Positions 59,896-63,954 of a stretch of 64,000 nt of DNA are shown one piece after another. Origin of the DNA: a phage; NCBI GenBank assembly GCA_032986305.1, contig GCA_032986305.1_3672.1. The stretch is one strand, 5' to 3'. The notes beneath the pieces are model-generated. The model was not told the origin of the DNA. It made no database searches and saw only the letters and a program-made list of their open reading frames with translations. A program made the translations under genes and the position numbers. The number at the start of each line of letters is the position of its first letter. The stretch's first letter is position 1.

Positions 59896-59994
59896 GGTGC
59901 TAGGCGGTGGAATCGAACCACCTATGTATTCAACGACTACCTCGTCTATTTTCAGGATTAAAAATCCTCGCCCTTGCCAAAGGGCTTACCTAGC
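59896..59994 (-). tRNA. atypical tRNA-like gene (about 99 nt; canonical reading of the loop would give anticodon TTT)
   Basis: Good acceptor (GCTAGGT/GCCTAGC), D-arm (GCCC-TTTGGCAA-GGGC) and T-arm (GGTGG-TTCGATT-CCACC), but about 30 nt separate the anticodon stem from the T-arm; CCA not encoded. Confidence 0.45.
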
Positions 59995-60388: not shown

Positions 60389-60463
60389 TGGCACCCCGTA
60401 CTGGACTCGAACCAGTGTCAACGGCTTAGAAGGCCGCTGCTTTATCCACTAAGCTAACAGGGC
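60389..60463 (-). tRNA. tRNA-Arg (anticodon TCT)
   Basis: Manual fold: acceptor GCCCTGT/ACGGGGT, D-arm GCTT-AGTGGATA-AAGC, anticodon arm GCGGC-CTTCTAA-GCCGT, T-arm ACTGGTTCGAGTCCAGT, CCA. Confidence 0.75.
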
Positions 60464-60559
60464 ACTGGGTGGCTTTCTTTTACACCTTAGCCGCCAGAAA
60501 AGGTGGGAGACCATGTTTACAATATTACACTGTTAAGCAAAGTTTGTCAAGAAAATATT

Positions 60560-60898
60560 TTAGCTATTGCTAACAGGCTGTATTTCTGTAGTAAATGGCA
60601 TAAAAGGTGCTGGTTTTTCAGCCTCTTCCACTACCATCTCTTCCTCTTCACCAAACATCTCATCATATTCTTCCTGCATTCGGTCTGCCTTATCAAGAAC
60701 ATACTCTGCAATGCTTTGACGAATATTTTGTTTGGTTTTCGGGTCCAACATCAGCTCTCTTAAAACTTTGTGAGCTTCTGGAACCATCGCTATAAAAGAT
60801 TCCTTCATATCAAGGATGTTCTTCTCTAGCTGAATGGCGTTGGACTCCTCTTTCAGAGGTCTGCCTCTACGGCGACGCTTTTTAGTTGTATCCGCCAT
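60560..60898 (-). CDS. hypothetical basic/acidic protein (112 aa)
   Basis: ORF track 60560..61018 trimmed to Met (MADTTKKRRRRGRP) preceded by GGAGG and the promoter at 60927-60955. Confidence 0.45.
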   Translation of the reverse strand: MADTTKKRRRRGRPLKEESNAIQLEKNILDMKESFIAMVPEAHKVLRELMLDPKTKQNIRQSIAEYVLDKADRMQEEYDEMFGEEEEMVVEEAEKPAPFMPFTTEIQPVSNS

Positions 60899-60926
60899 GT
60901 TTCCTCCATTATCACGTGATAGGTGG

Positions 60927-60955
60927 ATTTTATCATAGCAAATACTGATTGTCAA
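60927..60955 (-). promoter_or_regulatory. sigma70-like promoter
   Basis: Minus strand TTGACA (60950-60955), 17-nt spacer, TAAAAT (60927-60932). Confidence 0.55.
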
Positions 60956-60960
60956 GTTCG

Positions 60961-61200
60961 CCGCAGGGTGGTATTCCCTGCGACTTGTCCAGCGTCCTGG
61001 ACCAGCAAGACCCAACAAGTGGGTTACCAGAGGCCTATTACCCGCGCTTCGGCTCGACCTTGTTACAGGTTGGCTGGGGTCACATCGTCATGTGCTGGCT
61101 GCCCCTACCATTTTAAGTGTGGTGCACTATCAAGCCCTCTAAGGGGAACTCAGCCTTCTCCGAACCCTGTTTCAAAGCATCCAGAGATAAAGCCATCAAA
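60961..61200. other. GC-rich structured island A (candidate structured RNA or foreign insert)
   Basis: About 240 bp of high GC in an AT-rich context with consecutive hairpins (cgcaggg-tggtatt-ccctgcg; gtccag-cgtc-ctggac; gcgc-ttcg-gc); no convincing coding potential. Confidence 0.3.
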
Positions 61201-61244
61201 TTCATCTTTAAATTGGATATTCATCATGATACACGAAAACAACC

Positions 61245-61487
61245 TCATTGTAAAGCACAAATAAATAAAACATACTTAATTTGTTTGTTATCAGGCTCAG
61301 GGTAGAAGTAGAAGATCTTGCTATCACCGATCTGAACACCACCATCCCAACAACATAGCCCATAACCTGTATTCATACAAGCTAAGTCGTTGGCAAAATC
61401 TATTGCATCATCCAGTGCACGAAATTCACCTTCATCTTCTAAATAATCCTCATTCATGGAACGAAAAACGAGCTTAACCTTAAACAT
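61245..61487 (-). CDS. hypothetical protein (80 aa)
   Basis: ORF in minus-strand array. Confidence 0.4.
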   Translation of the reverse strand: MFKVKLVFRSMNEDYLEDEGEFRALDDAIDFANDLACMNTGYGLCCWDGGVQIGDSKIFYFYPEPDNKQIKYVLFICALQ

Positions 61488-61563
61488 AGCATTACCTGTA
61501 GACCTCGTAAGTTAAAATTGCATCACATCATATTGCAGATCTTATCAGGTAACACTATTTTTG

Positions 61564-61773
61564 TCAACAGATTCCGGCCTTATCCTTCCTGTCTGCGTAT
61601 TCTTTAATCGCAACCTCATCTGCATTAGTGACCAGGTCTTCAAAGTAACTCTCAAGCTCCTCGTCAATGTCAGGAGACCAGCCCTTTTTCCTGTCAGTGT
61701 GAATCGCAGACTTGTTAAACTTAGTACAGTTCTTTGCTACCGGATTGTTCATTAAGCACCCCTCAGCGTTCAT
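61564..61773 (-). CDS. hypothetical protein (69 aa)
   Basis: ORF overlapping upstream gene stop. Confidence 0.35.
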   Translation of the reverse strand: MNAEGCLMNNPVAKNCTKFNKSAIHTDRKKGWSPDIDEELESYFEDLVTNADEVAIKEYADRKDKAGIC

Positions 61774-62341
61774 AGTAAATCTTATTTAACATTACCTCAT
61801 CCTTTGCAGAAAGGATATCTAGATATGCATCACCGAATCTACCTGCAACAACCTCTGCATGATACATCACTTCGTTAATATCGTCAAGAGGGATAACTGG
61901 ATGACCGTATCTCTCTGAGTATTGTCTCAGAGTGCGATGTAGGGAGTCATCATCATAGGCAGACTTTTTAATATCGCAAACACGACGAATAGCCTTGATG
62001 TCGAAAAACCCTGTACGATACCAACCAAGAAAAAGGTTTCGTGCAGTGTCAACATCTACATCAATACCATTAAGAACCTTATCTACAAGATAGCTGTCAT
62101 CCTTTGGACCAGCTTCCTTAGTGCGAATGTAGTTGCCATCTTTTCCAGGTGACATCTCCTTCTCATCACCAACCTGCATGCCATCATTTGGCGGTGTTAG
62201 CCACTTATCCGGATGCTTACGATCACGAGCGTTAGAATGATTACGCTGGAAACCAGGCTTCCACTTGAAAGTTTTCTCCATCTGTTCTTCATTCTGATAA
62301 CGTTTTGCAATCTTTTCACGGTCATCTTTGCGTGAACCCAT
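61763..62341 (-). CDS. hypothetical protein (192 aa)
   Basis: ORF with AGGAGG RBS. Confidence 0.45.
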   Translation of the reverse strand: MGSRKDDREKIAKRYQNEEQMEKTFKWKPGFQRNHSNARDRKHPDKWLTPPNDGMQVGDEKEMSPGKDGNYIRTKEAGPKDDSYLVDKVLNGIDVDVDTARNLFLGWYRTGFFDIKAIRRVCDIKKSAYDDDSLHRTLRQYSERYGHPVIPLDDINEVMYHAEVVAGRFGDAYLDILSAKDEVMLNKIYYER

Positions 62342-62460
62342 AGCTGCCTCCTCTTCAAGTTATAGAAAAACTCACTGTATCACTTTGTAACGAGCTTTTC
62401 TATCAAACTGGTGCGATTGCATTACCTGGTATAGTTTATATAGCTGTGGAGCGATTTAGG

Positions 62461-62700
62461 GGCCTTCTTGTCAGTTTCCACACATAAACTTCATCCAAGC
62501 TCGCGCGGGAGGCTCTCAACCGACTCCTTACGGCGCTGGCAAGCTTTCGTCGGTGGTCCACATCAGTGCTCGGCCTTTGGCCTGCGCTATCGCTTCGCTC
62601 CCACACATGTTAACAGACCTGCATGTATGCACTTCTGTTATTGTGTGCACCAAGGAGGCCCGGCATCTCGCCCCTCGTAGGCGAGTGCCAATGAAGGGCC
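62461..62700. other. GC-rich structured island B (candidate structured RNA or foreign insert)
   Basis: About 240 bp of high GC directly upstream (minus sense) of the 61763..62341 gene; multiple potential stems; only an implausible 70-aa plus ORF. Confidence 0.3.
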
Positions 62701-62844
62701 GACACTACCTATAGTAAGTAATAATTTTAAAACATGGTACTTAGGATCTAGTATATTCTACATAAGTTAAGTATATGTACTTAGTACCATAAGTACTAGA
62801 TCTTTTATTTTTTATTATTTAGTTATTTTAGTTATATTCTTTAT
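62701..62844. other. AT-rich tract with short inverted repeats (candidate DNA-unwinding or regulatory region)
   Basis: Very AT-rich 140 bp containing gtacttag / tactag-type inverted repeats, adjacent to the palindrome array. Confidence 0.35.
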
Positions 62845-62928
62845 GTGTCCGTATCACGGACAGTTAGTGTCCGTATTACGGACAGATGTGTCCGCGTGAC
62901 GGACAGTAGTGTCCGTATCACGGACAGT
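62845..62928. repeat. array of four 18-bp palindromic sites (TGTCCG-N6-CGGACA) at 21-22 bp spacing
   Basis: tgtccgtatcacggacag (x2), tgtccgtattacggacag, tgtccgcgtgacggacag; perfect half-site symmetry; spacing of about two helical turns. Confidence 0.8.
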
Positions 62929-63001
62929 TACTGACCTCTGTTCCAGAGCGAACATAAAACATACGAATCCTTATAGTACAGATATTTAAGTTTTTACTGG
63001 T

Positions 63002-63352
63002 CTAACCAGTTGTTGACATTCGAATAACCTCTTCTGGTGGCAAAACTTTGGAAAATGTACATCTTTTACCTCTCCCTTGTGTGGATATTTCAACCACTCC
63101 TGCACATTCTAAAGTTTTAACACACGCTGCTGCTTTTGTTTTCTTTATCCCAACATCTGCTGCAATTTTCCTTGTGCTGGGTGTGAAGCGTGAATTTCCT
63201 CCAAGCTTATACCAGTTGTGCAGGTAGCAGTATACGATCTTGTCATATAAGTCAAGAACAACAACCTCCCCAGTTGTGTCATTCAAAACTTTTGACATAG
63301 ACAGTATTTCAAGGGGGACTTTAAGATATAGCAGCTTATCCCCATCTTTCAT
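63002..63352 (-). CDS. putative winged-helix DNA-binding protein (116 aa)
   Basis: Segment TRKIAADVGIKKTKAAACVKTLECAGVVEI has HTH-like character; gene lies directly beside the palindrome array. Confidence 0.4.
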   Translation of the reverse strand: MKDGDKLLYLKVPLEILSMSKVLNDTTGEVVVLDLYDKIVYCYLHNWYKLGGNSRFTPSTRKIAADVGIKKTKAAACVKTLECAGVVEISTQGRGKRCTFSKVLPPEEVIRMSTTG

Positions 63353-63399
63353 ATCTCCTGATTCTCCTTGTGTGGCAATTTTCTTTAAAATAGCAGGGA

Positions 63400-63954
63400 T
63401 TACTCCCCGCTGTCAATAGCAAGACTCATTGCAATACGGTATGCCTCTTCTAATGGTAAGAGTCTCCCCCACACATCCCAACCGACATCAAACTGCCTGC
63501 CAAACAACTGCTGTGTGGTTCCGTGAGCATGACCGAACAGTTGGACTGATCCGTGAGGCTTTCTGTTCCACTTTGCAAACTGGTAATGGCTCATACAGAT
63601 CAAATTCTTGTTGTGGCGAAGCTCGTAATAATCTACAACCTCATGACCGAACTCTTTCATAATTCTGACAGTCGTCCTTGTGTCATGGTTACCACGAACA
63701 AGAATAATATGTCCGTTCAACATATTTAGAACATCTGGGAGCAATTTGTTGATATTCTTATCATTAGTGCACGCAATATCTCCCAAGTGAAACACAGTGT
63801 CTGCAGGTGACACAACAGAGTTCCACTTGGTGATGATTCCCGCATTCATACTGTCAAGATTGTGATCATACTGAGATCTGTGTTTTTGACATGAATCGAA
63901 CTCCATGACCCGCTGGTGGAGAAAGTGTGTGTCGCTTGTTACAAAGTATTTCAT
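63400..63954 (-). CDS. calcineurin-like metallophosphoesterase (Ser/Thr phosphatase-like)
   Basis: Motifs SDTHF (DxH), GDIACTND (GDxxD), VRGNHD (GNHD/E), GHAHG. Confidence 0.7.
   Translation of the reverse strand: MKYFVTSDTHFLHQRVMEFDSCQKHRSQYDHNLDSMNAGIITKWNSVVSPADTVFHLGDIACTNDKNINKLLPDVLNMLNGHIILVRGNHDTRTTVRIMKEFGHEVVDYYELRHNKNLICMSHYQFAKWNRKPHGSVQLFGHAHGTTQQLFGRQFDVGWDVWGRLLPLEEAYRIAMSLAIDSGE

Follow-up and report, generated by a model that had tools for sequence, protein, structure and literature searches.

In plasmid iteron origins of the pSC101, R6K, F and P1 type, repeats placed about 21-22 bp apart are accompanied by an AT-rich tract and by the gene of a winged-helix initiator, and the iterons are asymmetric direct repeats that are bound by Rep monomers. 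Palindromic iterons are found in phage lambda, whose RefSeq record shows four 18-bp units inside gene O, starting from codon 116, spaced 20, 24 and 23 bp and followed by an A-rich tract. Dimers of the O protein bind these iterons to form the O-some, and unwinding takes place in the AT-rich tract; the two iterons nearest to that tract are enough in vitro, and the origin is activated when the region is transcribed (PMC7466680). For rV5, the genome paper published in 2013 described a gp4/DnaB-like helicase-primase and a skew analysis for the origin that revealed only changes linked to the direction of transcription, leaving the origin undefined (PMC3606486). A literature search on the motif described here, on iterons or on the origin in Vequintavirus found nothing relevant.

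The DNA analysed here (the window) is a stretch of 64,000 nucleotides (contig GCA_032986305.1_3672.1 of GenBank assembly GCA_032986305.1) that belongs to an rV5-like Vequintavirus. A search with the 1.15 kb that surround the palindrome array described below matched 119 phage records; the match covers at least 80% of the query in 118 of these, and the identity is nearly always 95-99.7%. The genome of phage D1 (137,167 bp, 99.7% identical), assembled from three fetched pieces, was used for whole-genome checks. All genes in this part of the window are located on the minus strand, and the features are listed in the gene direction:

63400-63954, minus strand: metallophosphoesterase gene, the first in the minus-strand gene order
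63387..63416, minus strand: sigma-70-type promoter-like site (TTGACA-18-TATTTT with TG), from a consensus scan
63002..63352, minus strand: winged-helix gene of 116 aa, candidate origin-binding initiator (rV5 ORF79/gp075)
62927..63001: spacer from the stop codon to site 1, the most variable portion of the intergenic region
62910..62926: site 1 (gene orientation), TGTCCGTATCACGGACA, exact match to TGTCCG-N5-CGGACA
62889..62905: site 2 (gene orientation), TGTCCGCGTGACGGACA, exact match
62868..62884: site 3 (gene orientation), TGTCCGTATTACGGACA, exact match
62846..62862: site 4, adjoining the AT tract, TGTCCGTATCACGGACA, exact match
62701..62845: AT-rich tract, candidate DNA-unwinding element, from composition and duplex stability
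62420..62700, minus strand: GC-rich (55-64%) conserved non-coding block of about 280 bp, directly after the AT tract
61763-62341, minus strand: ORF of 192 aa annotated without a function, after the GC-rich block and followed by small ORFs and a tRNA cluster

The stop codon of the 116-aa gene is found at 63002-63004 and site 1 begins 76 bp downstream, with stop codons in between, so that a candidate origin at this place would lie outside the coding sequence. The promoter-like site sits 35-64 nt upstream of the gene, and its equivalent is annotated as P76 in the rV5 record NC_011041. In the phage records, the gene carries the label 'putative transcriptional regulator', or that of 'replication initiation protein' in RefSeq, and in phages naam and pangalan the array is recorded merely as a 'repeat_region'. 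The global minimum of the cumulative GC skew of phage D1 is located 1.5 kb from the array; this agrees with an origin here but is not independent evidence, because the minimum coincides with the switch in transcription direction. As a separate observation on the annotation of these genomes, ARAGORN identified, at 59896-59994 on the minus strand, a tRNA-like gene of 99 nt whose anticodon has four bases (atcc) and which appears as tRNA-OTHER or tRNA-Lys in related records, and the neighbouring tRNA with a CAT anticodon is assigned to Met in some records and to Ile in others. Also, 18 UNVERIFIED records of 'Campylobacter phage' (MG065646 etc., host C. jejuni) are at least 99% identical to E. coli Vequintavirus, and the C. 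jejuni host label of those records looks doubtful.

The array contains four exact matches to TGTCCG-N5-CGGACA, with start-to-start distances of 22, 21 and 21 bp. A preliminary description of this DNA had reported four palindromes of 18 bp with a centre of six nucleotides, spaced at 21-22 bp; the number of copies and the spacing agree with the measurements, and the unit had to be corrected to a length of 17 bp with a centre of 5 bp. Its statement that this is not a CRISPR array is borne out by the distance between units, which is only 4-5 bp, compared with the unique spacers of about 26-40 bp of a CRISPR. The half-sites TGTCCG/CGGACA lie 11 bp apart, centre to centre, which is approximately one helical turn, and the units recur every 21-22 bp (about two turns), a geometry that would place bound proteins on one face of the helix. 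Same-face phasing together with the binding of a dimer is a reasonable reading of the array. The pattern is not expected by chance: no exact match occurred in 100 dinucleotide-preserving shuffles of the window, and no further site was present in the 64 kb with two mismatches allowed. Searching for the palindrome elsewhere in the genome had been proposed as a check, and in phage D1 no site with at most one mismatch was found outside the array, which is also the strongest tandem repeat of that genome (TRF score 110-126; all others 46 or less). Around the array, neither a convincing DnaA box cluster or IHF consensus nor an enrichment of GATC was detected. As for sequence assembly, three rV5-like metagenome contigs, L021 (ending at 1839), L022 (3519) and L028 (3505), stop inside or just past the array, an indication that short-read assemblies break at the four 21-bp repeats.

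The way in which the region varies among relatives provided information about what may be recognised. The intergenic region was aligned for 12 Vequintavirus loci, among which the 116-aa protein is 86-100% identical. Only 2 of the 48 half-site columns and none of the 13 linker columns between sites were variable, compared with 7 of 20 columns in the central N5 and 25 of 75 in the spacer between the stop codon and the array. Most of the sampled relatives carry one half-site change in site 3 (TGTCCG to TGCCCG, gene orientation), and the changes of this kind, which affect two columns, have no compensation on the other arm. Such a pattern agrees with half-sites that are recognised by their sequence in a fixed register, and agrees poorly with a function as hairpins. 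In the alignment, it is on the half-sites that selection acts.

The very AT-rich segment with inverted repeats that had been noticed beside the array was recovered at 62701-62845, with a GC content of approximately 0.19-0.21 against 0.444 for the window. Within the window, this tract provides the 100- and 140-bp segments with the lowest GC content and the least stable duplex, and in the complete 137-kb genome of phage D1 no duplex of 100 bp or 140 bp is less stable; there its 100-bp duplex energy is -102.6 kcal/mol, the next value is -108.7 and the mean is -133.5 (sd 5.7). Next to the array, the gene strand of the tract is rich in A and carries, directly by the last site, the 9-mer ATAACTAAA in about 3.4 tandem copies, and inverted repeats are present further away (e.g. 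62734-62744 / 62780-62790). In the alignment, 90% of the columns of the tract are invariant. The distal part displays other features: at 62734-62806 the inverted repeats ATCTAGTA...TACTAGAT and ATGGTACTAAG...CTAAGTACCAT are interleaved and non-nested, and they are found together with several short GTAC-containing palindromes and two GATC sites (62745, 62799), all of which could be binding sites for a second factor. A resemblance to a T7-like promoter, ACTTACTATAGGTAG, at 62704-62718 on the minus strand, was considered and dismissed, as the divergent lineage does not preserve it.

In the GC-rich block (62420-62700) that adjoins the AT tract, 87% of the columns are invariant across Vequintavirus loci, and some records annotate small hypothetical ORFs there (rV5 ORF78). 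A scan of the window against Rfam at the gathering threshold and an E-value scan of 60450-63000 returned tRNAs and chance-level matches only. The fold of the block has a z-score of -2.2, with one compensatory pair among 7 little-diverged sequences. The idea that the block is a coding relic was rejected: it has no codon periodicity, and tblastn and phmmer gave no similarity to initiator C-terminal domains. The block could be a structured RNA or a part of the origin. A second GC-rich (about 58%) non-coding patch, unrelated in sequence and weakly structured (z-score -1.3 to -1.7), is located at 60950-61150 between two small ORFs.

The locus follows the lambda plan in several respects. A lambda-type origin is characterised by at least three dyad-symmetric repeats about two helical turns apart, and the array has four such repeats, at 22, 21 and 21 bp against the 20, 24 and 23 bp of lambda. 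In both cases, about 116 codons of a DNA-binding domain are followed by the sites and then by an A-rich, easily melted tract, which in the window is also found on the far side from the sequence coding for that domain, and an upstream promoter, predicted in the window, reads through the region. The two loci differ in the half-site, which is TGTCCG with a 5-bp centre in the window and TCCCTC with a 6-bp centre in lambda, and in the location of the repeats, since the lambda origin is inside the O gene whereas the window gene ends 76 bp before the iterons. The remaining element of the lambda plan, a C-terminal domain or a neighbouring gene that recruits the helicase or its loader, is absent: unlike lambda, the window has neither the C-terminal domain nor an adjacent P-like helicase-loader gene. 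With the plasmid iteron origins the locus shares the spacing of the repeats, the AT-rich tract and the winged-helix gene, but its units are palindromic and suited to a dimer.

With respect to the protein, the helix-turn-helix character that had been attributed to the product of 63002..63352 is supported by winged-helix matches to two Pfam families, DUF6945 (PF22182; 27.1 bits, E 4.7e-6, about 1 bit under the gathering threshold of 28 bits) and HTH_36 (PF13730; 24.5 bits, E 2.3e-5, just under the threshold of 25 bits), which together span residues 19-91. PF13730 is also present in the precomputed Pfam matches of the close relatives P0001 and P0003, and the family profile matches PDB 4ro3, the solved structure of a hypothetical protein, with an E-value of 1.8e-6. 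The AlphaFold2 model was poor (shallow alignment, pLDDT 47), and its secondary structure is the expected one, helices and then a beta-hairpin. Among the PHROGs, the protein defines phrog_12838, 'replication initiation protein' (2.5e-80), and it also matches the N-terminal 75-100 residues of larger initiator families (phrog_8102, 7.5e-6; phrog_428; phrog_270). Alignment of the 116-aa family with the N-domains of 11 array-carrying initiators by hhalign gave a probability of 96% and an E-value of 4e-9, figures that are uncalibrated against unrelated winged-helix families. No similarity to lambda O and no Rep_3-type Pfam match were detected for the 116-aa protein, and it consists of the winged helix only, with no helicase-recruiting domain. 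The 192-aa downstream ORF matches only a PHROG of unknown function and has no similarity to initiator proteins or to their C-terminal domains. Judged by these profiles, the 116-aa protein is probably a winged-helix domain with a likely relationship to the N-domains of phage replication initiators. Its own distribution is narrow. A tblastn search against phages returned 119 records, every one of them Vequintavirus; a word-indexed search of 5.8 billion proteins gave 5 clusters; an exhaustive HMMER search of 1.84 billion representatives gave 15 weak matches, two of them below 1e-10; and a protein-based locus search of IMG/VR with the 116-aa protein gave none.

The palindrome itself turned out to be much more widespread. 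IMG/VR was scanned for the exact pattern, requiring two adjacent TGTCCG-N5-CGGACA sites, and 17 viral contigs (L004-L020) unrelated to rV5, with a GC content of 49-70%, were found to carry arrays of 2-7 sites, usually at a spacing of 21-23 bp. An ORF that contains or spans the array is present in 15 of the 17; it begins with a winged-helix domain, and the first site comes right behind this domain. This count includes L005, with a weak IclR-type match and no PHROG match, and L010, with neither. The other two are L018, which is cut at the array, and L017, in which the spanning ORF was outside the family scan. The array-spanning viral ORFs represent six protein families. In Pfam, most of the ORFs have matches among the winged helices of HTH_36 or of the MarR/IclR type, and most match PHROGs named 'replication initiation protein' or 'replication initiation O-like'. 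An equivalent scan of bacteria, with one genome per species, identified 37 contigs (L030-L066) from many phyla; over the viral and bacterial contigs together, the sites are mostly spaced 20-23 bp. Four of the bacterial contigs are clear cases (Actinoplanes liguriensis and MAGs of Treponema, Kiritimatiellae and Parachlamydiaceae), with 2-6 sites; counted along the winged-helix protein concerned, the array starts at residue 113-135. The PHROGs matched by the four proteins are those of O-like initiators, DnaD-like helicase loaders and replisome organizers, with E-values down to 1e-26. Many other bacterial matches have two sites only, 20 bp apart, in GC-rich genomes, and were left out of the count; the two-site contigs include many Myxococcota and Burkholderiales, and in some of them an ORF of about 620-640 aa has the sites right at its beginning. 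Taking viral contigs and bacterial genomes together, palindrome arrays are present inside at least 10 unrelated initiator gene families. In most of the elements that carry the array, it is followed in the gene direction by an A-rich tract of 40-50 bp and low GC, with the same polarity as in the window (for example, a GC of 0.32-0.34 where the contigs themselves have 61-66%). In a cyanophage relative of one of the initiators, this position is occupied by other repeats, and an A-rich tract comes after them as well.

When the elements L004-L020, L034, L036, L037 and L041 are compared with the window, the half-sites are identical, the centre is 5 bp long and the spacing is similar, and the order and polarity, from the winged-helix domain to the array and, in most of them, to the A-rich tract, are shared. 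The differences concern the coding sequence. In the O-like and DnaD-like initiators of those elements the array is translated within the protein, whereas in the window it lies outside the gene, and the initiators are mostly 275-420 aa long with a C-terminal domain, whereas the window protein has 116 aa and no such domain. The L006-type initiators, with 133 aa, are nearly as short as the window protein and hold the array within their C-terminal tail; one of them is colinear in an alignment with the rV5-like gene plus its array. In their organisation these initiators are an intermediate form. By phmmer, no link was established between the initiators of those elements and the rV5-like protein.

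These observations make the locus the strongest candidate for an origin of replication in rV5-like phages: it is probably their origin, or one of their origins, of the iteron type, built on the lambda plan and served by an initiator that consists of a winged helix only. The recurrence of the array in initiator genes is, as comparative evidence from sequence, the decisive argument for this reading. The preliminary description had considered an iteron origin, a parS-like site and an operator; the first is favoured by the arrays in initiator genes, by the profile links of the protein and by the easiest-melting tract beside the sites, and little speaks for the other two. The process would begin with the early transcription of the 116-aa gene by the host RNA polymerase from its own sigma-70-type promoter, which is predicted from sequence. 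By homology and architecture, dimers of the protein would then bind the four 17-bp palindromes, all on one face, and assemble a wrapped complex like the lambda O-some, and the strain of this complex would open the adjoining AT tract of 145 bp. Because the protein does not have the loader-recruiting C-terminal domain of lambda O, the loading of the helicase must go another way; it might occur, speculatively, through another partner, directly through the gp4/DnaB-like helicase-primase or through a transcription R-loop. Compared with known iteron origins, the candidate origin would thus be a variant in two features, an initiator formed by the DNA-binding domain only and iterons located outside the gene.

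A different possibility is that the protein acts as a transcriptional operator-binding factor or roadblock, which on its four sites would stop or tune the read-through from the early promoter into the GC-rich block, the 192-aa ORF, the small ORFs and the tRNA cluster. The label 'putative transcriptional regulator' in several phage records agrees with this, as do weak matches of the protein to the CodY, LexA and TrmB/MarR winged-helix families and the position of the array inside a single transcription unit, in which no terminator-like site was found from the promoter at 63387..63416 through the 116-aa gene to the array. However, on neither strand did a scan of 62700-62930 reveal a promoter-like site overlapping with the array or the AT tract, and none is annotated at that place in rV5. 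An autoregulatory operator is not what the array would be, since it is located downstream of the gene for the protein itself. Further, regulation of read-through leaves the least stable duplex of the genome, right beside the array, unexplained, and it does not account for the presence of the same array within the replication-initiator coding sequences of unrelated elements. We therefore regard an operator as unlikely.

The locus might also be the domesticated remnant of an acquired origin module, that is, a truncated initiator that no longer fires replication and has taken another role, such as blocking competing phages or prophages by occupying their TGTCCG-N5-CGGACA origins. The distribution of the module within the related genera is in line with an acquisition. 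Seunavirus (L067) and Phapecoctavirus (L068) keep the phosphoesterase and RNA-ligase genes in a different annotated gene order, and no winged-helix counterpart is annotated at the syntenic place in either of them; from these annotated loci, the module appears to be specific to Vequintavirus, it was probably gained or swapped as a unit, and replication initiation in the two other genera must differ, a point that counts against the origin reading. A DNA-binding domain alone is the form expected of a dominant-negative protein, many other mobile elements use the same iteron, and the GC-rich block after the AT tract looks foreign. Against this, the sites, the linkers and the AT tract are tightly conserved in the 12 relatives compared, and such strict conservation speaks for a role in cis; an inhibitor acting purely in trans would not need cis elements. 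In addition, neither the IMG/VR nor the bacterial scan revealed an enterobacterial element with this iteron, and the GC-rich block bears no similarity to initiator C-terminal domains. A remnant that has ceased to fire is, on balance, quite improbable.

There is also a small chance that the palindromes function as RNA. In this case, four hairpins with a 6-bp stem and a 5-nt loop in the 3' UTR would stabilise or terminate the winged-helix mRNA in a REP-like manner. The array would indeed be transcribed as the 3' end of that mRNA if there is no terminator, and its single strand folds strongly (z-score -6.9), but no U-tract or terminator-like signature was found, the TGTCCG to TGCCCG changes are uncompensated, the linkers are invariant although the hairpin model does not require it, and the same sites are found in the coding regions of initiators. 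Finally, a parS-like partition centromere bound by a ParB-type protein has nothing in its favour except the general look of clustered palindromes and is extremely improbable, as no ParA/ParB-type match was obtained among the six neighbouring ORFs scanned (60560-63954), the phage group is called lytic in the literature and the neighbouring protein groups with replication initiators.

A broader proposal is that TGTCCG-N5-CGGACA is a deeply conserved origin 'word' that is read by winged-helix initiators, diverged too far to be recognised by ordinary means, in phages and prophages of at least five bacterial phyla, including Actinomycetota, Spirochaetota, Chlamydiota, Kiritimatiellota and Proteobacteria-type viral contigs, and of which the rV5-like phages would have the minimal version, with an initiator cut down to its DNA-binding domain and the iterons moved out of the gene. 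This proposal is put forward tentatively, and at present we lean against it. If it were true, strand opening and helicase loading would be possible without the C-terminal domain of the initiator.

In conclusion, the rV5-like phages, which belong to the E. coli myoviruses isolated most frequently and have uses in typing, biocontrol and therapy, have had an undefined origin so far, and a concrete candidate of about 450 bp, comprising the gene, the four sites and the AT tract, makes the question of their origin directly testable. For phage engineering, such a segment could be of use in the construction of replication-competent amplicons and in conditional replication. The presence of one palindrome across many unrelated initiator genes provides a simple signature for finding origins of this kind in metagenomes. 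An initiator formed by a winged helix only would represent a minimal case in which to ask what an iteron-binding initiator must add beyond the binding of DNA.
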